Below are positions 3,355 through 62,770 of a stretch of DNA of 64,000 bases, piece by piece. The notes under the pieces are model-generated. The model was not told where the DNA came from. It searched no databases and saw only the letters and a program-made list of their open reading frames with translations. Source of the DNA: Octopus vulgaris (taxonomy: Eukaryota); contig OX597818.1 in the NCBI GenBank assembly GCA_951406725.2, positions 135,532,001-135,596,000 on the forward strand, given 5' to 3'. Position 1 is the stretch's first letter. The number at the start of each line of letters is the position of its first letter. The position numbers and the translations under genes were made by a program.

Positions 3355-3867
3355 CATCATCATCATTGTTCGACCGTGGTCGAGACAATGGAATTTACCA
3401 TGCTACACCAGACTTCATGGTCCATCATGGCATTACGGAGGTCCTGTTGCTAGATGCCTGTATCCCTGGAGATTATATCAGGGTAGGAGAGTGTGCGCCC
3501 TCTGGTATTGCGAGTAGATGGCTTCCAGAGGAGAAGAGTAGAAATTGCCTCATTTTCAGCTCTACAACAATGTCCAGCAAACTGGACTCTCCTACCTTTC
3601 ACAAGAGATGACACAGGTGGTAGTTTCCCATATATTTGCATTTTGGTTGGATGGCGCTTCCACGAGAGATTTTGAGCTCTCATAAGGAGGCGAGTGTAGG
3701 TTCCATCCAACCGCCTCTCAAGCTTCTTTGATAACGTCCAGGTTTCTGAGCCATATAGTAGAATTGGTTCGACTGTGGCTTTGAATATTTCAAGTTTGAA
3801 GTCTCTACTTAGATTTGATGACCAGATCTTATGCATGTCATTACAGGCTGACCAGGCCATACCCTTT
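3355..3867 (-). mobile_element. 5'-truncated RTE-like LINE (C-terminal ORF fragment)
   Basis: ORF 3450-3860 contains ILLYGSETWTL and FAGHCCR motifs. (gat)n tail. 11-bp TSD caaggacacat at 3344-3354 and 3868-3878. Confidence 0.9.
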
Positions 3868-8945: not shown

Positions 8946-9158
8946 AAGGCGGTGAGCTGGCAGAAACATTAGCACGCCAGGCAAAATGCTTTGCGGTATT
9001 TCGTCTGAGGTCAACTTTGCCTTTCATCCTTTTGGGGTCGATTAAATAAGTACCAGTTACGCACTGGGGTCAATATAATCAAGAACAGACACACGGATTG
9101 TGTGTCTGTCCTCAATTGCCCTCTCTGTGTTTAGCCCCTTGTGGGTAGTAAAGAAATA
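8946..9158 (+). mobile_element. tRNA-derived SINE, family C, internally deleted (B-box region missing)
   Basis: Head aaggcggtgagctggcagaa, core gcctttcatccttttggggtcgat, tail aaagaaata. 17-bp TSD ggtatacttatcctggc at 8924-8940 and 9159-9175. Confidence 0.88.
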
Positions 9159-16784: not shown

Positions 16785-16819
<35 letters not shown>

Positions 16820-18666: not shown

Positions 18667-19031
18667 GGAAGCACTCCGTCAGTTACGACGACAAGGGTTC
18701 CGGTTGATCCGATCAACAGAACAGCCTGCTCGTGAAATTAACGTGTAAGTGGCTGAGCACTCCACAGACACGTGCACCCTTAACGTAGTTCTCGGGGATA
18801 TTCAGCGTGACACAGAGAGTGACAAGGCCGACCCTATGAAATACAGGTACAACAGAAACAGGAAGTAAGAGTGAGAGAAAGTTGTGGTGAAAGAGTACAG
18901 CAGGGATCACCACCACCCCCTGCCGGAGCCTCGTGGAGCTTTAGGTGTTTTCGCTCAATAAACACTCACAACGCCCGGTCTGGGAATCGAAACCGCGATC
19001 CTATGACCGCGAGTCCGCTGCCCTAACCACT
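18667..19031 (-). mobile_element. SINE family B with tail B1
   Basis: Near-identical to 46501-46883. ccttagtg repeated on both sides. Confidence 0.9.
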
Positions 19032-21334: not shown

Positions 21335-21656
21335 TCGGTGGCACGTAAAAAGCACCATCCGAATCGTGGCTGAAGCCAGTGCCGCCTCGACTGGCTTCCG
21401 TGCAGGTGGCACGTAAAATGCACCAATCCAACCGTGGCCGATGCCAGCCTCACCTGGCACCAGTGCAGGTGGCACGTAAAAAGCACCCACTACACTCACG
21501 GAGTGGTTGGCGTTAGGAAGGGCATCCAGCTGTAGAAACATTGCCAGATAAGACCGGAGCCTGGTGCAGCCTTCTGGCTTCCCAGATCCCCGGTCGAACC
21601 ATCCAACCCATGCTAGCATGGAGAACGGACGTTAAACGATGATGATGATGATGATG
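21335..21656 (+). mobile_element. Family D (RTE-type 3' end)
   Basis: Three ggtggcacgtaaaa units, ggcgttaggaagggcatccagctgtagaaac, (gat)n tail. Confidence 0.85.
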
Positions 21657-25473: not shown

Positions 25474-26511
25474 TATATATATATATATATACACATACAG
25501 TTGTATGCATGTCATTGTTCAGTTTTATTTCAAGATGTCTTGCTAATAAAGAGCTGGTTTCTAACCTAATGTATGTATGTATCAATCAATCAATCAGTGG
25601 TATTAATGTGTTTGAAGATCCTTGCAGTGCTACTAATTTCTCAGGTTGATAAATTATTTTCTCCATATCCCTTATTCCTTTCCTTCTTTTTGCCATTTAT
25701 TTCTTCTTATATCCACCCTAACTGAAGTATATAGTCCTCCATTCCCCACATTTTGTCACCTTACCTCATATTCCCCCCTCCTAACATACACTATCATCTT
25801 ACCTAATGCATAATCCCTCCTCTTCATCACCCTACTTGAAGTTATAGCCTTCCTCTCCACTCATACACAACCCTGTTGTGTGTAGTTTCTCCGGCAATGT
25901 GATGAAGACCATCAAGTTATCCAGGGGTGGGGGGTGGGCTTGTTTTGTGAGTCCATGTGTTAAACTGTAGACAACTTCTACTACACTTGTTACTAATCAA
26001 TAATATACCAATTGGTTACTGGAGTGACTATGATTAATAACTTATTTCATAAATATCATAATAACTTATTTCATCATTCTAATGTTAATCATAGTCCAGG
26101 AGGTATGTGTTTAGCCAATGGCTGAGGACTGACTTCATCACACAAGTCTCAGTTATAGTCTAGGATCATAGTGACATATTTCATTACTATAATGTGATTA
26201 TATGTATAGTCAAGTACTGAGAGTCTGCAGGCTTTGAAGCTTTTAAGTGCAACCTTTTAGAAGTGGCTGAATTTTACCTTTAAAAATATATCTTTAATTA
26301 TTCAATACTAGATCATGTAATCTTTGATAATTGCTTTCTGTTAGTATCAGTTAGATACTCCAAGCTAATTAATAAGCAGCTTTTTGTTGTTGTTGTTGTT
26401 GTTGTTATTGTTATTATTATCATCATCGTCATTATTATAGTTGTTGTTATTGTTATTATTGTTGTTGTTGTTATTGTTATTATTATTGTTGTTGCTATTA
26501 TTATTATTATT

Positions 26512-26816
26512 AAGGCGGCGAGCTGGCAGAAACGTTAGCATGCTGGGCGAAATACTTAGTGATATTTCGTCTGTCTTTACGTTCTGAGTTCAAATTCCGC
26601 CGAGGTCGACTTTGCCTTTCATCCTTTCAGGGTCGATAAATTAAGTACCAGTTACGCACTGGGATCGATATAATCAACTTAATCCGTTTGTCTGTCCTTG
26701 TTTGTCCCCTCTGTGTTTAGCCCTTTGTGGGTAGTAAAGAAATAGGTATTTCTTCTGTCTTTACGTTCTGAGCTCAAATTCCACCGTGGTCAACTTTGCC
26801 TTTCATGTTTTTGGGG
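26512..26816 (+). mobile_element. SINE family C monomer plus partial second body unit
   Basis: Full copy 26512-26744, then aaagaaata|ggtatttc junction and about 70 bp of a second body. Confidence 0.88.
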
Positions 26817-35017: not shown

Positions 35018-35239
35018 TATTTCTTTACTACCCACAAGGGGCTAAACACAGAGGGGACAAACAAGGACAGACAAACGGATTAAGTCAATTACATCAACCC
35101 CAGTATGTAACTGGTACTTAATTTATCGACCCCCGAAAGGATGAAAGGCGAAGTTGACCTTGGCGGAATTTGAACTCAGAACGCAGCGGCGGACGAAATA
35201 CCACAAAGCATTTCGCCCAGCACGTTAACATTTCTGCCA
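35018..35239 (-). mobile_element. SINE family C monomer
   Basis: Same body as the array unit plus most of the head. Confidence 0.88.
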
Positions 35240-36049
35240 TCTCTATATAGCTTGCATCTACTAAATTTTCACTCTCAATGCATTTGTCAATCTGAGGCTT
35301 TAGAAGATGACACTGGTCCAAGGTACCATGCTGTAGGATAGAACCTGAAACCATATCGTTGCAAAGCAAGCTTTGTAACCACACAAGATATTTCACAAAC
35401 TCGCCATTTGATTTATCATTGCCAGTACAAACCCTCCCCAGTTTCCCCTGATTCCATATTGCACCATTCCATATCTCCCCTCCTCATCTTCTCTTCCATC
35501 CCTTCTAGCATGTCTCACCAGAACTTTCATTGATCTAATAGGAAGAAATATTAAGTAGAGATTCAGGTTTCATTTATCATAAAACAAGATTTATTCAACA
35601 AAAGGAAAATCAATGTATCTCTAGTTTCTCCTAAGTTAGTCAGAATCAGTGTCACGCTAAACATCAGAAGAATATATTATCATATCTGAATAAACCTAAG
35701 TCTTCATTTAAACTCCAGCTTCTTCAATATCACAATAGGCTGCACGTCTGTCTATAATTTTTCAGCTTCTGTCATCCTTTTATGCACTAACAAAGAATTC
35801 AGTGTCTTCTACATCTAGAATCACCTGACATACTACTTTTCAAGGATTCATCCTGATTTTAAGACAATAGTACTGATGTCTCTTTGGGAGAATTATTTGT
35901 GCCAATGTTTTAATTTTATTTTAATTTCAAAAGTAAGTTATGTTTTCAAAAAAATATTTTGCAGTTCTTATGTTTTAAAAAGTTTTGCTGTCTACAATAT
36001 TTTAGCTTTTAGAACATACAGCATTGATTAAAAATTGGTTTAATCAGTT

Positions 36050-39996: not shown

Positions 39997-41114
39997 TTGC
40001 CCTTCCGAACGCCAACATGCCCTTCATAACGCCTATACACAAAAAATAAAGACAACCAACATATTTATTTGCCAAAAAATTATCAAAGGCGATGTTAGCA
40101 ATAAGATTGTTATATCACACCCAGTTCGTACATATCCGAATCTCACAAACTAAGCAGCAAAAAAGAGTTTAGTGAGATTTGTGAAACTATTGTTTAACTT
40201 TTAAGATATAATCAATATTTGCTTTGGAATTGCTGCATCCTACCAAGAGAATTGCTTTTAAATGTTCATCAGTCAACCTCGTTCAATGTGCTGACTTCAC
40301 ACACTTCACTTTTGAAAATGTTTGCTCACAGACATAAATTGTTTCAAACACTGATACTATACCAGAGGCAAATGCAGGTACTTACACAAAAGGTACAGGG
40401 TGGCAGCAGGTCAGATCTGGCCTGTGGGCTAGTTTGGTGACCCCTGTTTTATACAGACACCTGTCTGTCTCTTGATCTATATTATCTAGTGTGTTCTAAT
40501 GTGTATCAACTTGTTGTTTATTGTCATTGTTAAAGCTTTGGGTCAACCCTGATCATGCTGAGTTGTGATCAGAAGTATTCCAAACATGACCATCCATTTT
40601 TTTTTTTTATAATATCGTACATTGGAAAAATTACCCAGTTTCCTTCTCTTTCTAAAGTAGTAATGTATAATTTGAGGGAGATTTGGCTGCTATTTTTAGT
40701 AGATTAAACAACTACATAGAGGTTCCTTTTGTTATTGCTACTTTGTTGTAACCATCAAAGTGTAGCAAAGATTAGGATCTTATTGTTTATGTCAGATTTA
40801 AACCCTGAATATTTCTTTCTGCTATTAAGAAGTTTTAAATACTTATAAGGTCTATTTGTCTCCTTAGACATACACATTAGCCATTATAGGCACATGTTGA
40901 GATATACTTAACACTTGCCTCTATGTACATCATTATTTTGTATGTATATACTTTCAGCTACTTTATAGTTCTACTTTGTCATAGTAGAACAAATAACCAT
41001 TTGTCATTATACTTATAATCATTGGTCCTCCCAAGCACTGAGCATGAACCAGTGAGATGTTACATTGACCCTCTCATCCAGACTTGCAACTGTAAGAGGA
41101 AAGCAGAACACAGT

Positions 41115-43872
41115 TATTTCTTTACTACCCACAAGGGGCGAAACACAGAGGGGACAAACAAGGACAGACATAGGTATTAAGTCGATTACATCGACCCCCA
41201 GTGCGTAACTGGTACTTAATTTATCGACCCCGAAAGGATGAAAGGCAAAGTCGACCTCGGCGGAATTTGAACTCACAACGTAACGCAGACGAAATACCTA
41301 TTTCTTTTATTACCCACAAGGGGCTAAACACAGAGGGGACAAACAAGGACAGACATAGGTATTAAGTCGATTACATCGACCCCCAGTGCGTAACTGGTAC
41401 TTAATTTATCGACCCCGAAAGGATGAAAGGCAAAGTCGACCTCGGCGGAATTTGAACTCACAACGTAACGCAGACGAAATACCTATTTCTTTTATTACCC
41501 ACAAGGGGCTAAACACAGAGGGGACAAACAAGGACAGACATAGGTATTAAGTCGATTACATCGACCCCCAGTGCGTAACTGGTACTTAATTTATCGACCC
41601 CGAAAGGATGAAAGGCAAAGTCGACCTCGGCGGAATTTGAACTCACAACGTAACGCAGACGAAATACCTATTTCTTTTATTACCCACAAGGGGCTAAACA
41701 CAGAGGGGACAAACAAGGACAGACATAGGTATTAAGTCGATTACATCGACCCCCAGTGCGTAACTGGTACTTAATTTATCGACCCCGAAAGGATGAAAGG
41801 CAAAGTCGACCTCGGCGGAATTTGAACTCACAACGTAACGCAGACGAAATACCTATTTCTTTTATTACCCACAAGGGGCTAAACACAGAGGGGACAAACA
41901 AGGACAGACATAGGTATTAAGTCGATTACATCGACCCCAGTGCGTAACTGGTACTTAATTTATCGACCCCGAAAGGATGAAAGGCAAAGTCGACCTCGGC
42001 GGAATTTGAACTCACAACGTAACGCAGACGAAATACCTATTTCTTTTATTACCCACAAGGGGCTAAACACAGAGGGGACAAACAAGGACAGACATAGGTA
42101 TTAAGTCGATTACATCGACCCCAGTGCGTAACTGGTACACAACGTAACGCAGACGAAATACCTATTTCTTTTATTACCCACAAGGGGCTAAACACAGAGG
42201 GGACAAACAAGGACAGACATAGGTATTAAGTCGATTACATCGACCCCCAGTGCGTAACTGGTACTTAATTTATCGACCCCGAAAGGATGAAAGGCAAAGT
42301 CGACCGGCGGAATTTGAACTCACAACGTAACGCAGACGAAATACCTATTTCTTTTATTACCCACAAGGGGCTAAACACAGAGGGGACAAACAAGGACAGA
42401 CATAGGTATTAAGTCGATTACATCGACCCCCAGTGCGTAACTGGTACTTAATTTATCGACCCCGAAAGGATGAAAGGCAAAGTCGACCTCGGCGGAATTT
42501 GAACTCACAACGTAACGCAGACGAAATACCTATTTCTTTTATTACCCACAAGGGGCTAAACACAGAGGGGACAAACAAGGACAGACATAGGTATTAAGTC
42601 GATTACATCGACCCCAGTGCGTAACTGGTACTTAATTTATCGACCCCGAAAGGATGAAAGGCAAAGTCGACCTCGGCGGAATTTGAACTCACAACGTAAC
42701 GCAGACGAAATACCTATTTCTTTTATTACCCACAAGGGGCTAAACACAGAGGGGACAAACAAGGACAGACATAGGTATTAAGTCGATTACATCGACCCCC
42801 AGTGCGTAACTGGTACTTAATTTATCGACCCCGAAAGGATGAAAGGCAAAGTCGACCTCGGCGGAATTTGAACTCACAACGTAACGCAGACGAAATACCT
42901 ATTTCTTTTATTACCCACAAGGGGCGAAACACAGAGGGGACAAACAAGGACAGACATAGGTATTAAGTCGATTACATCGACCCCCAGTGCGTAACTGGTA
43001 CTTAATTTATCGACCCCGAAAGGATGAAAGGCAAAGTCGACCTCGGCGGAATTTGAACTCACAACGTAACGCAGACGAAATACCTATTTCTTTTATTACC
43101 CACAAGGGGCTAAACACAGAGGGGACAAACAAGGACAGACATAGGTATTAAGTCGATTACATCGACCCCAGTGCGTAACTGGTACTTAATTTATCGACCC
43201 CGAAAGGATGAAAGGCAAAGTCGACCTCGGCGGAATTTGAACTCACAACGTAACGCAGACGAAATACCTATTTCTTTTATTACCCACAAGGGGCTAAACA
43301 CAGAGGGGACAAACAAGGACAGACATAGGTATTAAGTCGATTACATCGACCCCAGTGCGTAACTGGTACTTAATTTATCGACCCCGAAAGGATGAAAGGC
43401 AAAGTCGACCTTGGCGGAATTTGAACTCACAACGTAACGCAGACGAAATACCTATTTCTTTTATTACCCACAAGGGGCTAAACACAGAGGGGACAAACAA
43501 GGACAGACATAGGTATTAAGTCGATTACATCGACCCCCAGTGCGTAACTGGTACTTAATTTATCGACCCCGAAAGGATGAAAGGCAAAATCGACCTCGGC
43601 GGAATTTGAACTCACAACGTAACGCAGACGAAATACCTATTTCTTTTATTACCCACAAGGGGCTAAACACAGAGGGGACAAACAAGGACAGACATAGGTA
43701 TTAAGTCGATTACATCGACCCCCAGTGCGTAACTGGTACTTAATTTATCGACCCCGAAAGGATGAAAGGCAAAGTCGACCTCGGCGGAATTTGAACTCAC
43801 AACGTAACACAGACGAAATACCGCTAAAGCATTTCGCCCGGCGTGCTAACGTTTCTGCCAGCTCGCCACCTT
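41115..43872 (-). repeat. Tandem array of 15 SINE-C bodies (~185 bp) behind one SINE head, bounded by a TSD
   Basis: Unit starts on +: 41115, 41299, 41484, 41669, 41854, 42038 (59-bp deletion), 42163, 42346, 42531, 42715, 42900, 43085, 43269, 43453, 43638. Head 43823-43872. 12-bp direct repeat gcagaacacagt at 41103-41114 and 43875-43886. Confidence 0.95.
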
Positions 43873-43895
43873 ATGCAGAACACAGTGCTAATCAC

Positions 43896-44326
43896 ATGTG
43901 CTGGTTTTGTCATGTGATGCAGATAGATGAGGTAACTTGCATAAACAAGTGCTGATCACTTAAAGTGGACGGAAGTTGTGATAGACAGAGACTCAGGAAG
44001 ATGTGGAATGTAGTATTGAAAACCAATCTCAAAACACTGAGCCTTACAAAGGAGATGACAGATGACCAAGATATGTGATGCATTGCTGTACTCAAGAAGA
44101 CACCCCCAACAGGTGTCATATAAAATGCATTGGAGTGGGTGCTGTTGCCATGTAAAAATCACCCAGTACACTCTGTAAAGTATATGGTGTTTGAAGGGTA
44201 TCCAGCTGCAGAAACCAAGTCAAAACAGACTATGAAACCTGGTGCAGCCCCTGGCCTTGCCAGTTCCTGTCAAACCATCAAACTCATGCTAGTATGGAAA
44301 AAAGGATGTTAAATGTTGATGATGAT
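43896..44326 (+). mobile_element. Decayed RTE LINE C-terminus and 3' UTR
   Basis: CWFCHVMQIDE...KC*SLKVDGSCDRQRLRKMWNVVLKTNLKTLSL resembles RWFGHV...GRGRPRKTW. Followed by a diverged family D tail and (gat)n. Confidence 0.8.
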
Positions 44327-44333
44327 GGATTAT

Positions 44334-44716
44334 GGAAGCACTCCGTCGGTTACGACGACAAGGGTTCCGGTTGATCCGAATCAACGGAACAGCCTGCTCG
44401 TGAAATTAACATGTAAGTGGCTGAGCACTCCACAGACACATGTACCCTTAACGTAGTTCTCGGGGGTATTCAGCGTGACACAGAAAGTGACAAGGCTGGC
44501 CGTTTGAAATACTGGTACAACAGAAACAGGAAGTAAGAGTGAGAGAAAGTTGTGGTGAAAGAGCACAGCAGGGATCACCACCATCCCTGCCGGAGCCTCG
44601 TGGAGCTTTAGGTATTTTCGCTCAATAAACACTCACAACGCCCAGTCTGGGAATCGAAACCGCGATCCTATGACCGCGAGTCCGCTGCCCTAACCACTGA
44701 GCCATTGCGCCTCCAC
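44334..44716 (-). mobile_element. SINE family B with tail B1
   Basis: Full-length reverse-complement match to 46501. Confidence 0.92.
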
Positions 44717-46500: not shown

Positions 46501-46883
46501 TGGAGGCGCAATGGCCCAGTGGTTAGGGCAGCGGACTCGCGGTCGTAGGATCGCGGTTTCGATTCCCAGACCGGGCGTTGTGAGTGTTTATTGAGCGAAA
46601 ACACCTAAAAGCTCCACGAGGCTCCGGCAGGGGATGGTGGTGATCCCTGCTGTACTCTTTCACCACAACTTTCTCTCACTCTTACTTCCTGTTTCTGTTG
46701 TACCTGTATTTCAAAGGGCCGGCCTTGTCACTCTCTGTGTCACGCTGAATATCCCCGAGAACTACGTTAAGGGTACACGTGTCTGTGGAGTGCTCAGCCA
46801 CTTACATGTTAATTTCACGAGCAGGCTGTTCCATTGATCGGATCAACCGGAACCCTCGTCATCGTAACCGACGGAGTGCTTCC
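46501..46883 (+). mobile_element. SINE family B with tail B1
   Basis: Full length. attctacac repeated on both flanks. Confidence 0.92.
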
Positions 46884-47565
46884 CATTCTACACTACATTA
46901 CTTCCAGTGACATTGCTGTCAAAATGAATACCAGCTTGCTTTGGAATGTCCAATCTTAGAGTATTGTTCTTCAACACCAATCGTTTTAGAGTACCTTGTT
47001 CATGTCATTAAAATCTAGTTCAGATTACAGACTACATATAACAGCTGGTGGATGCCACCGATCATTCCTGATTAAACTAGCCATGTGCCACAAAACCGAC
47101 TCCATGTGGACATCTTCTTCAGTTACAGATTTGTCATGCACACGCACACAGATACACATGCATACAGACATAACACACATGCACGTGCACACACAAATGC
47201 ACACACAAACAGGTGTTGTGCTCTAGAAGCTCTATGATTAAATCAACTTGAACCAGCTGATTTAATCAGAGCTAATATTCATATAAAAATAAAGTGTGCT
47301 TATCATCATCATTTTAACATCTACTTTTCCACGTTTGCATGTGTCAGACAGAATTCATTGAGACAATTTTCTTTGGCCAGATGCCCTTCCTGTCACCAAC
47401 CCTCGCCTGTTTTCAAGCTGAGAAATATTTCCCCTCTCACTGGACATGTTTTCAGGGAAGATGGGAAAGGAAACACTTTGCATATGTAACAGTGATACTT
47501 ATTTATAACTAACCTATGATGACAAAACCAAGAAAAGCACTCACATAAATATATACATATATATT

Positions 47566-47898
47566 GGCTTCCGTGTTGGTGGCACGTAAAAAGCACCATC
47601 CGAATCGTGGCCGAAGCCAGTGCCGCCTCGACTGGCTTCCGTGCCCGTGGCACGTAAAATGCACCAATCCGACCGTGGCCGATGCCAGCCTCGCCTGGCT
47701 CCAGTGCAGGTGGCACGTAAAAAGCACCCACTACACTCACGGAGTGGTTGGCATTAGGAAGGGCATCCAGCTGTAGAAACATTGCCAGATAAGACCGGAG
47801 CCTGGGGCAGCCTTCTGGTTTCCCAGATCCCCGGTCGAACCGTCCAACCCATGCTAGCATGGAGAACGGACGTTAAATGATGATGATGATGATGATGA
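47566..47898 (+). mobile_element. Family D (RTE-type 3' end)
   Basis: Near-identical to 21335-21656. Confidence 0.85.
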
Positions 47899-49943: not shown

Positions 49944-50272
49944 CATCATCATCATCATCATAATCATCATCGTTTAACGTCCATTTTCCGTGCTAGCACA
50001 GGTTGGACAGTTCGACCGGGGTCTGGGAAGCCAGGGGCTGCACCAGGCTCCAGTCTGATCTGGCAGTATTTCTACAGCTGGATGCCCTTCCTAATGCCAA
50101 CCACTCCGCGAGTGTAGTGGGTGCTTTTTACGTGCCACCTGCACAGGTGCCAGAGGGGTCTGGCATCGGCCACAATCGGTTGGTGCTTTTTATGTGCCAC
50201 CGGCACAGAAGTCAGTCAAGGTGGTGCTGGCATCGGCCACGTTCGGATGGTGCTTTTTATGTGCCACCGGCA
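49944..50272 (-). mobile_element. Family D (RTE-type 3' end)
   Basis: (cat)n followed by reverse-complement family D with three internal units. Confidence 0.83.
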
Positions 50273-51070
50273 CATACATGCATTATGGTTTAACTATTTG
50301 CAATTTCCTTTCGAAGGTGATTTTATCTTTATACCATTATGTTTCCACTGCAGTGTGCTATAGATTCTCTTTAATGGTGTTATCAAAGATTAATCTTTGT
50401 TACCAGCAGAGCTAATAACATCTGAACTTCTCCCAGACTTTCCTTAGTCTGGCTACTATGTTTTTGGAATATCACCTCCACTGTAATTTAGGTCACCTAG
50501 GTAACAGAAATTGTCAACTATTTCTAGGAATCTGAACTTTTGAGAGAATCTGTTTCCTATGTGCGTTTAGTGCTTATTGCTCCTGTGCACCTGCTGCATA
50601 TAAAACTTACCTTCTCTGTTAGCCTACTTTGCCTCTTGTGCATCTATAGGTTACGATGACAACAATGTATGAAATTCCTACCTCCTCCTGTTCTGCATAT
50701 CAGCACAGCTAGTTCCAGACAGTAGCAAATTCCTGTCTTCTTTGGCACTTACTAATATTTTAATCTGCTAAATTTACTTTGTGCCTTCTTGATTCTAACT
50801 TTTGCTCAGCAAGAAATCTATTCTGTTCTGGCTCTTTTTCTCATTCATTACCCTCTCCACTCTTTATTCTGCTAGCAAAAAATTCCTCCTCCCCACTTGG
50901 AGTTCATAGTCTTGTAAGCTGCATGTGACCTCACTAGTTGTAATGGCAAGAAAAAAGAAGCACCCAGTATACAGTGGTTGGTGTTAGGAAGGGCATCTAT
51001 CCTTAGAAACCATGCCAAAAAATCACTGGAGCATGATGCAATCCTTCAGCCCATCAAACCCTGTCAAACC

Positions 51071-51303
51071 TATTTCTTTATTACCCACAAGGGGCTAAAC
51101 ATAGAGGGGACAAACAAGGACAGACATAGGTATTAAGTCGATTACATCGACCCCAGTGCGTAACTGGTACTTAATTTATCGACCCCGAAAGGATGAAAGG
51201 CAAAGTCGACCTCGGCGGAATTTGAACTCACAACATAACAGCAGACGAAATACAGCTAAGCATTTCGCCCGGCATGCTAACATTTCTGCCAGCTCGCCGC
51301 CTT
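51071..51303 (-). mobile_element. SINE family C full-length monomer inside an old family D copy
   Basis: Nearly identical to the array unit plus head. 13-bp TSD accctgtcaaacc at 51058-51070 and 51306-51318. Confidence 0.93.
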
Positions 51304-52132
51304 AGACCCTGTCAAACCATCCAACCCATGCCAGCATAGAACACAAATATTAAATAATAATAACGATGATGAAGATGATTCAGTTATAAGAACTAAGTCA
51401 TCAGCTTATAGGAGTTCCTAAGGATAATCAGTTATGGCCTAGAGGATTCTAATAAATAGAAACTGGCTGGAGACTGAACATTGATGAACTCCTCCCTGCA
51501 AGCTAAATTTATTATTGTGCTCATTGCTAGCCCTCAGCTTGCTCATTGCACTTTTCTTCATGGCCCTCACAAGCCATTCAGCCATCTCTAGTTTCCTTAG
51601 TAACTATCAGAATATAGAATGTTGTACTCTGTTAAAGAGCTTCTCCAGATTAATGTATGCTAGATACAACAACTTACTCCTTGCTAAGCATTTCTGTAAT
51701 TGTCTCACTAGGTTAATGGTATTGGCCGTACCTCTTCTTGGCACAAACCCAAACTACATCTATTCTAGGTTAATTCTTTCCAGAATCATTTGTGTCATAA
51801 GTCTTTCAGTAAGTTTCATAACCTGGTCCATCAGCTTGACATCTTCTATTATTTCCCTTCTCTACCATGTCTTGCTTGCTCTTAGCAGTTCACAATGACA
51901 CTGCTACAGCAATCATTGGGTATACCACCTTGCTATACTACCTGATTGACTATAAGTGTGTTTAGTGTGTGACGTTTATCGTAGTTTCATTGACTCAACA
52001 GCAATATCTGATGGATCAGATGCCTTCCTTGCCTTCATATTCTTAATTGCTCTATCTATGCTGCTATACTGCTGTCATCTTAAATAGTTGGTCTTTCTAG
52101 TATACATTGGGTATACTCTTTCTGACTCTCTC

Positions 52133-52169
<37 letters not shown>

Positions 52170-52640
52170 TAGAGAGGCAAGTTTTGTCTAGTGAATGTTT
52201 TAAAAAAAGATGGTGAATGTAGCAAGGATGGCACGTATGAATGACGAAGCCACCGTGACTATGATTCTATGAACCGTAAAAATTAATACAGAGAGTTGCT
52301 TATTTGCAAAAAAAAAAAAAGAAATATAACATGTGACTTCATTGACCGAGGTTACCGTGGTCTTTTCCGTAGGCTTTTCTTTCCACGGGTAAACCTCACC
52401 TGTCCTCCCCTTTACACTTCATTTTGACATTTCTGTGATAAAAATCCCTATTGATCAATTTTTTCCTTCCCCCCCCCCTTTTTTATTTTATTTTATTCCC
52501 CCCTTTTTTTGTCCTCTTTCTTTCCCTTTACGATCCCTTTTGATCAAAAACCAAACCCCCTTTTTTTACCCCCAAAAGAAAAGCTCTACCTTGTAATTTG
52601 TCCTGTCTGTGTGCAGCCCTGTGTGGCTAATAAAGAAAAA
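52170..52640 (+). mobile_element. 5'-truncated L1/Tx1-like LINE 3' end inserted in (TATC)n
   Basis: ERQVLSSECFKKRW/VNVARMARMNDEATVTMIL* (one frameshift; FxxxW C-terminal motif). Pyrimidine-rich UTR, aataaagaaaaa end, (tatc)n on both sides. Confidence 0.65.
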
Positions 52641-52929
52641 TATCTATCTATCTATCTATCTCACACACACATACATTCTCATTTAACAGCTTCTCATAAT
52701 AGTGCTGCCATGCCTCTTTCTTTTTGCCATTGGTAATGACTGGTACTCCTCTATCATTTCATCTACATGTCTACACTTCTCCCAAATGGTAACTTGATTT
52801 ATTTCTGCCACTCTGTCTTGCAATCCAAAACATCTCATGGTTCTGATCCTCACATTGCAGAACATACACTAATCACTTCTTTTCTGTTTCTTCTCAAGCT
52901 ATGTAGAAAGTGTATCCCCAAAGTTTTCA

Positions 52930-59942: not shown

Positions 59943-60330
59943 GGAAGCACTCTGTCAGTTACGACGACGAGGGTTCCGGTTGATCCAAATCAACGGAACA
60001 GCCTGCTCGTGAAATTAATGTGTAAGTGGCTGAGCACTCCACAGACATGTGTACCCATAACGTAGTTTTCGAGGATATTCAGCGTGACACACAGAATGTG
60101 ACAAGGCCGGCCCTTTGAAATACAGGTACAACAGAAACAGGAAGTAAGAGTGAGAGAAAGTTGTGGTGAAAGAGTACAGCAGGGATCACCACCATCCCCT
60201 GCCGGAGCCTCGTGGAGCTTTTTAGGTGTTTTCGCTCAATAAACACTCACAACGCCCGGTCTGGGAATCGAAACCACGATCCTGTGACCGCAAGTCCGCT
60301 GCCCTAACCACTGGGCCATTGCGCCTCCAC
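59943..60330 (-). mobile_element. SINE family B with tail B1
   Basis: Full length. TSD aaagtgggagg. Confidence 0.92.
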
Positions 60331-62025: not shown

Positions 62026-62770
62026 CAGGGCAGGATCAAGACCCATAAAGGCCCTGAGCACTTCGATTTTGGTGCCCACATATATAGAATTCAAAATATA
62101 AACAATAATAAACCAGAAAATAATGTTTATTTTTATATATTTCCACTTTATATATATGAAAAGTTTTCTACTTTTTTTAATTGCAAAGTCTTTGATCAGA
62201 TCTTCAAAATTAATCTTACGTAAAACATCTGCTTCTATACTTAGTATAGATAAGGCAGTGGAGGCGCAATGGCCCAATGGTTAGGGCAGCGGACTCGCGG
62301 TTTCGATTCCCAGAAAGGGCGTTATGAGTGTTTATTGAGCGAAAACACCTAAAAGCTCCACGAGGCTCCGGCAGGGGATGGTGGTGATCCCTGCTGTACT
62401 CTTTCACCACAACTTTCTCTCACTCTTACTTCCTGTTTCTGTTGTACCTGTATTTCAAAGGGCCGGCCCTGTCACTCTCTGTGTCACGCTGAATATCCCC
62501 GAGAACTACGTTAAGGGTACACGTGTCTGTGGAGTGCTCAGCCACTTACACGTTAATTTCACGAGCAGGCTGTTCCGTTGATTCGGATCAACCAGAACCA
62601 TCGTCGTCGTAACCGACGGAGTGCTTCCCATCCATAGATAAGGCATCCAGCCTACCTTGTTGGGGATTATTAATATACTTCAACTAAGAAAATGAATGCT
62701 CAGCTGAGCAATTTCTGATCATTAATGCTAAAAATATACGAAAGGCAATATCTACATTTGTAAAAGCACA
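62026..62770 (-). pseudogene. hAT transposase C-terminal dimerisation-domain relic with one TIR-like end
   Basis: AFTNVDIAFRIFLALMIRNCSAEHSFS*LK...RLDALSILSIEADVLRKINFEDLIKDFAIKKSRK once the SINE is removed. cagggcaggat end at 62026. Confidence 0.85.
62258..62630 (+). mobile_element. SINE family B with tail B1
   Basis: 12-bp TSD atagataaggca. Small head deletion between cgcgg repeats, also seen in the 14448 copy. Confidence 0.92.

Follow-up and report, generated by a model that had tools for sequence, protein, structure and literature searches.

In the blood clam Scapharca broughtonii, short interspersed elements (SINEs) form arrays of the type TSD1-(SINE)n-TSD1 (TSD, target-site duplication) with 4-15 units, according to the sections of that report devoted to the arrays (PMC11481361). 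The SINE-derived satellites of squamates (sSat) have units shorter than the SINE, and their homogeneity is ascribed to DNA-level amplification in the relevant passages of the squamate study (PMC10702118). The step from interspersed to tandem repeat has so far been argued mostly from old, homogenised satellites. The octopus array described here lies in a 64-kb stretch of DNA (the whole stretch that was analysed, hereafter the window). It keeps both of its ends, its TSD and readable variants among its units, and its seed junction is common and fixed in the family. Because ends, TSD and unit variants are all kept, the SINE-to-satellite step becomes testable within one assembly. A literature search, which covered few subscription papers, returned no publication describing this junction or arrays of this kind from a cephalopod. 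An earlier note on this DNA had started from too strong a premise of novelty, since a head followed by head-truncated units in one TSD is known from the bivalve, as the array sections of the clam report describe (PMC11481361).

The array, its SINE family and its insertion site

We confirmed that the array is real, with one head, 15 bodies, 14 identical junctions and one TSD pair. Read along the minus strand, it is composed of a TSD copy, 2 extra bases, a 50-bp head, 15 units as assembled and the second TSD copy (Table 1). The proposal of one head plus 15 bodies within a single TSD is borne out by this layout and by the perfect 12-bp TSD, the count of 15 being that of the assembly. The TSD 12-mer is present at exactly 2 places within the 64 kb, and a flush repeat of this length would arise by chance with a probability of roughly 1e-5. 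At 14/14 junctions the complete 3′ end is joined to the same base, monomer position 51, just as the earlier note had described, and a full tail closes 15/15 units. Its description of 15 near-identical units of about 185 bp applies to 14 of them (183-185 bp) and not to unit 10, which measures 125 bp. The single TSD pair, the full-head first unit and the later units cut at one head position are the features of blood-clam-type arrays. The unit, covering 185 of the 235 bp of the monomer, is shorter than the SINE and there are 13 middle units, where a unit below SINE length and at least four middle monomers characterise an sSat. The 50-bp head is not the complete tRNA-like head it had been taken for: the B-box-like motif, which has one extra base, sits inside unit 1 and hence inside the standard unit. 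The re-entry point therefore falls within the tRNA-like region, of which the 50-bp head is the 5′ part.

Table 1. Coordinates of the array, its flank and the dispersed SINE copies in the 64-kb window.
Feature	Position	Strand	Remarks
Head-side flank	43902-44111	+	Host site; decayed C-terminal part of a reverse-transcriptase ORF
TSD, head-side copy	43875-43886		12 bp, perfect
Extra bases		-	2 bases between the head-side TSD copy and the head (43872-43823)
Single head	43823-43872	-	50 bp; 5′ part of tRNA-like region, with 5′ arm and loop of the hairpin
Inner part of head hairpin	43811-43839	-	12-bp helix and 5-nt loop (predicted fold)
Unit array as a whole	43822 to 41115	-	15 units
Unit 1	43638-43822	-	Length 185 bp; C>T at unit position 14, found in no other unit; B-box-like motif at 43796-43787
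Unit 2	43453-43637	-	Private C>T makes a four-T run (43589-43586), possible Pol III stop
Units 2-14	41299-43637	-	Thirteen middle units; complete tails, identical junction
Unit 5	42900-43084	-	Recombinant type: has unit 15's C at position 159 and an internal-type tail
Unit 10	42038-42162	-	125 bp; internal deletion of 59 bp
Unit 15	41115-41298	-	Body as in other units; last 27 bp of the tail type of copies B, C and D
TSD, tail-side copy	41103-41114
Copy A	51071-51303	-	Closest to the array (95.8%); 13-bp TSD beginning GGT
Copy B	26512-26816	+	Full SINE at 26512-26744 (91.1%), same junction, 72 bp of a second body
Copy C	35018-35243	-	87.8%; 8 bp missing at the 5′ end; no GGT after the 3′ end
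Copy D	8946-9158	+	73.4%, with a deletion; 17-bp TSD beginning GGTAT

The 15 units comprise 9 distinct sequences, including private substitutions and deletions of 2 and 59 bp. Units 1, 2, 3, 9 and 10 have one private change apiece, and 2 of the 7 private events lie within the outer 41 bp out of a total of 2708 bp (post hoc p 0.005). The middle units are about 99.9% alike when the deletions and the G4/G5 indel are set aside. Variants concentrated at the edges are the pattern expected from unequal exchange in tandem arrays. Alleles common to all 15 units are absent in 4/4 dispersed copies, and the body of the array unit is of copy A's type. Unit 15 is a mosaic, its A-type body ending in 27 bp that differ at three sites and represent the B/C/D-type tail. 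The variant that the earlier note saw in the units at 41115 and 42900 is real: it is an A>C change at unit position 159, common to unit 15 (ends 41115) and unit 5 (ends 42900), and unit 5 has this rare C together with an internal-type tail. The G4 allele recurs in units 3, 4, 7, 10 and 11; at other sites these units have the alleles peculiar to the array. These variants show DNA-level exchange in the lineage, here or in a source array, since unit 15 combines two subfamilies, unit 5 holds the rare base and one indel is found in five units; the subfamily linkage in this argument has 4 dispersed copies as its base. A contrast in CpG age between the head and the middle units (p 0.018) was set aside, as it rests on 2 events and miscounts unit 2's non-CpG change.

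It is very improbable that the array is an assembly artefact in which a locus of 1-3 units was over-expanded. The G4/G5 difference is indeed of the homopolymer type that is error-prone in long reads, and the count of 15 comes from the assembly. However, an artefact fits poorly with 9 distinct sequences among 15 units, with their private substitutions and their 2- and 59-bp deletions, and with the presence of the junction in three independent data sets, as described below.

The monomer, that is, the head plus one unit, is 235 bp long and has 4 further near-full copies within the window (copies A-D in Table 1). This short element (<1 kb) is dispersed in multiple copies: 181,755 contigs match the query in the sequence run X4 and 356,755 in X2, with nearly all depth on the SINE part, and TSDs of 12, 13 and 17 bp flank the array, copy A and copy D, respectively. 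A TSD search on copy B found none, and the flanks of copy C offer just a 6-bp low-complexity match as a TSD candidate. The second body of copy B has 10 mismatches in 72 positions to its first body. ARAGORN made 0 tRNA calls on the element, Rfam gave 0 matches to E 10 over 43300-43950 (hammerhead included), and strict Pol III box patterns had no match in the monomer. Copy B and a distant relative (about 16786-16600, minus strand) both begin directly after (TTA)n, at 26440-26511 and 16787-16819, respectively. Copy A is inserted within a member of another repeat family (51304-51330 and 51040-51070), a related copy of which is found at ~44270-44330, near the array.

A segment at 52597-52642 resembles the SINE tail (80% over 46 nt) and is putatively the 3′ end of a LINE, the candidate partner (presumably Tx1-like). 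A protein search with the 40-residue frame before 52270 of this putative partner found nothing. The stretch 52170-52642 (plus strand) consists of a short frameshifted coding end and a long pyrimidine-rich stretch followed by the SINE's tail, and is a candidate partner-LINE 3′ end. The central part of the SINE presumably resembles the Meta-domain, and the family presumably resembles an octopus SINE, such as OK, OR1 and OR2. In MetaSINEs a 66-bp Meta-domain directly follows the tRNA region; short-motif searches for it in published supplementary text gave nothing, the consensus being in a figure only. The tail 20-mer had 10, 5 and 1 matches in metagenome, genome and viral contigs, respectively; all 16 are chance matches with no further similarity.

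On the head side, a protein search with the flank of the array gave 39 matches, and 2 of the 6 that were scanned carry Pfam RVT_1. When the two flanks were compared as possible halves of one interrupted reverse-transcriptase remnant, the head-side flank matched all 39/39 proteins that it had retrieved, and the tail-side flank had no significant match, with a best rank of 25 of 127,888 (1/5 profile windows). In X2, one contig of 535 nt aligns with 43873-43966 at 1 difference but does not match the SINE head, its orientation being ambiguous; it may represent the empty site, which would make the insertion of the array young. In tblastn searches with P0030, decayed reverse-transcriptase fragments were located at 51379-51840 (minus strand, E 1e-8), 3561-3800 (minus strand, 2e-4) and 43902-44111 (plus strand, 3e-7). 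Other repeats of the window include a dispersed one at 21337-21487, 47565-47728 and 50120-50274, in each copy of which a 63-68-bp unit is repeated in tandem 2.3-2.5 times, and a young one in five copies (44334-44500, 46718-46883, 62462-62628, 18667-18828 and 59943-60111) with 90-95% identity over about 165 bp.

The junction across the family and the head hairpin

The term concatemer-forming SINE, used in the earlier note, is supported at the family level, because the junction of the array is found in the window also in copy B, at 26744/26745, and in three contig sets. A query of one unit, head and flank (43638-44100) was compared with 4 of 24 sequence runs (X2, X4, X15 and X22), the small-share runs X18-X21 and X24 being among those set aside. 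Past the 3′ end of the SINE, the consensus of loose contig ends, judged by eye, continues into the junction. It does so over about 7 letters from 374 contigs in X4 (agreement 0.49), over 12 letters from 465 contigs in X2, which has a second species label (agreement 0.53), and over 18 letters from 174 contigs in X15, probably an RNA run (agreement 0.64). Past the 5′ end, X4 and X2 give mixed flanks only (agreement 0.37). The contigs are sequence variants and not copies, the counts include part of the loose ends, and from the composition of the window we estimate that a G or C can win the consensus only when it is present in at least roughly a tenth of the contigs. In X15 the run-on enters a body of the family type and not the array's own, so it is not derived from this array alone. 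Given copy B and the consensus in all three contig sets, the junction is not limited to one locus, nor is it confined to one or two loci, the outcome that had been named as telling against the proposal; these observations show it to be a family-wide trait.

The main junction was obtained as the loose-end consensus and is absent among the 15 joints listed (there are 390 further joints); a probable reason is that variants peculiar to the array cut the match short. The contig depth of head versus body was left unused, as it depends on likeness and gives no copy number. A second re-entry phase is present in X2, where the 3′ end is joined to monomer position 124 (43749 to 43645, depth about 1300), implying a unit of roughly 112 bp elsewhere in the family. 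Joints of SINE into SINE (43872 to 43731) occur in 5 contigs each in X4 and X2. The junction 22-mer had 0 matches in metagenome contigs. In the raw-read run X22, 14 of 12,895,792 reads match, none at 99%, so that neither junction share nor copy number can be read from it; this run has the same species label as the best-matching run and is nearly devoid of the abundant SINE family, pointing to a label or filtering problem.

The letters GGT follow 3 of the 5 element ends in the window (copies A, B and D; not copy C and not the last unit of the array). For this motif, which was picked post hoc, p is about 2e-5, or about 8e-4 at 2/4 when copy B is left out. The run-on letters open the TSD in copies A (GGT) and D (GGTAT). 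As GGT is found at 1.2% of positions, a bare preference for it cannot account for so common a junction. The sense strand of the standard unit has no four-T run, the one such run in the whole element being unit 2's private change, and Pol III read-through is therefore possible.

These element ends bear on repeated self-insertion, in which every junction would stem from an insertion event of its own at the internal GGT, the 5′ end being joined by homology without a new head. The openings of the TSDs of copies A and D agree with this, copy B resembles a younger body ahead of an older one, and joints of one SINE into another are present in the X4 and X2 contigs. However, all 15 units carry array-specific alleles that are unseen in 4/4 dispersed copies, and GGT is too short a preference to aim 14 events at one locus. 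We consider self-insertion improbable as the origin of the array; only at the first junction does it make a good candidate.

In the predicted fold the head forms one long hairpin and not a cloverleaf (z -3.5), and the heads of the dispersed copies give z-values of -2.9 (A), -2.4 (C), -1.2 (B) and -0.3 (D). The hairpin that had been placed in the anticodon arm is real, and the re-entry G at 43822 opens its 3′ arm with a predicted pair probability of 0.92, but the anticodon-arm setting gives way to a single long hairpin. In 3/5 heads (array, C and D) the 3′ arm opens with the re-entry base, copies A and B being mutated there. The last 6 nt of the element are complementary to positions 53-58, the sole such place in the monomer. 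The junction palindrome, which the earlier note had pointed out, reaches only -1.4 kcal/mol and is predicted not to form in context (z +0.7). The 185-nt circle is predicted to fold no better than its shuffles (z +0.3; 126/200 shuffles as good), and a circle and read-through would look alike in contigs. The claim that the unit has no hammerhead core stands, with 0 Rfam matches and with CTGA, the start of the core, absent on both strands of the doubled unit. An RNA-level route is kept alive by the re-entry position in the hairpin and by the 6-nt complementarity.

Such a route could be rolling or jumping reverse transcription, in which 3′ pieces beginning at position 51 would be cut at the hairpin loop and then joined by template jumps or ligated into a 185-nt circle. 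It would suit both the re-entry base at the start of the 3′ arm in 3/5 folded heads and the unique complementarity of the 3′ end, and L1 ORF2p makes template-jump concatemers in vitro, as stated in the enzymological part of that report (PMC10830420). A single circle, however, predicts identical units with unit 15's tail, whereas with a mixed RNA pool, or with 14 insertions, family alleles should be spread over entire units, and neither is seen. Circle and junction fold no better than shuffles, the unit contains no ribozyme by Rfam or by the core motif, and the re-entry phase at monomer position 124 is a further point against it. The pattern of DNA-level exchange counts against rolling on a single circle as well as against 14 separate insertions, and we regard the whole route as quite unlikely.

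Origin of the array

The reading we favour, at a probability of roughly 0.55, is that this is an array of a dispersed tRNA-like SINE in which a head with two bodies, or a short multimer, was retrotransposed and then grown to 15 units by exchange or slippage. It corresponds to the last of the four routes offered in the earlier note (a dimer or multimer followed by DNA exchange), whereas the other three, namely rolling on a circle, template jumps in a pool of mixed RNAs and self-insertion repeated 14 times, are disfavoured. The source copies of the SINE would already be tandem, so that Pol III would read past the tail, through the junction and into a second body. The reverse transcriptase of the partner LINE would prime at the tail or slightly past it, with the run-on letters acting as microhomology. 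This would yield monomers with a TSD that begins with GGT or GGTAT (A and D), copies with a partial second body (B) and array-seeding dimers. A dimer or short multimer would then insert, and unequal exchange or slippage between units would bring it to 15. The first junction itself may stem from an element that inserted into an older copy, its 5′ end being joined by homology, or from a template jump at the hairpin.

Directly observed in this account are the architecture of the array with its TSD, the junction shared across the family, the run-on into GGT, the mosaic make-up of units and the lack of a four-T run in the standard unit. Several points count against growth from a dimer: the exchange could all have occurred in the source array; near-uniform middle units (about 99.9%) also fit a single burst; copy B, with 10/72 differences and no TSD, is explained by an insertion into an older copy no less well than by read-through; and the last unit of the array has no GGT run-on.

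If the units had been homogenised elsewhere, in a source array, a read-through transcript of it could have given rise to the whole 2.76 kb in a single retrotransposition event, which we consider rather unlikely. A perfect TSD surrounds the entire array, the standard unit is without a four-T stop, the junction is present in the probable RNA run X15, and the 535-nt X2 contig, as a possible empty site, would point to a young insertion. However, the other copies in the window contain no more than 72 bp of second body, and a 2.7-kb Pol III transcript copied fully to the head is demanding.

Compared with growth after the insertion of a dimer or short multimer, a more tentative reading is that the SINE family both forms and mobilises its concatemers at the RNA level, in one event, and homes to its own hairpin base. 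Multimeric read-through RNA, or hairpin-cut 3′ pieces joined or circularised without a ribozyme, would give a head plus n bodies. The run-on 3′ end would home such RNA to the hairpin base of genomic copies, and arrays would jump and feed themselves. If arrays do jump whole, or if a ribozyme-free circle exists, this would be a new route of SINE amplification.

Relation to known arrays

The order of tRNA region, central domain and tail given for MetaSINE/MESC elements in the structural descriptions of those papers agrees with the octopus element (PMC4824008, PMC4758252). Among tandem systems, the non-LTR retrozymes are like the octopus array in having tandem retro-units of similar size that occur as monomers, dimers and multimers; in the defining passages of that preprint they carry a type I hammerhead per unit, whereas the octopus unit has no hammerhead and the array has a unique head and a TSD (bioRxiv 10.64898/2026.07.22.740005). 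With L1 ORF2p, end-to-end joining of templates without homology could make a junction of this kind. In the experiments set out in the enzymological part of that report, however, the jumps are made in vitro and from template 5′ ends, while the octopus re-entry is internal and the variants of the array are unlike those of mixed templates (PMC10830420).

The squamate satellite sSat3Ati2 (179 nt) spans the end of the head, the body and the LINE-derived region, like the octopus unit, and the sSats mostly keep one SINE terminus, a minor class keeping both, as far as the satellite sections of that study go (PMC10702118). Long sSat loci are enriched in subtelomeric regions, and the same sections present no analysis of TSDs (PMC10702118). 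The blood clam arrays share with the octopus array one TSD pair, a first unit with full head and later units truncated at the same head position, by the array sections of the clam report (PMC11481361). They differ in their tails, which in those sections are truncated in the first and middle units and complete in the last, whereas every tail of the octopus array is complete (PMC11481361). A family-wide fixed junction, its hairpin position and the GGT run-on are features of the octopus array that are not reported in the same sections for the clam (PMC11481361). The octopus array is a variant of the arrays known in clam and squamates, distinguished by full tails in all units and by a fixed, family-wide junction at the 3′ arm of the head hairpin.
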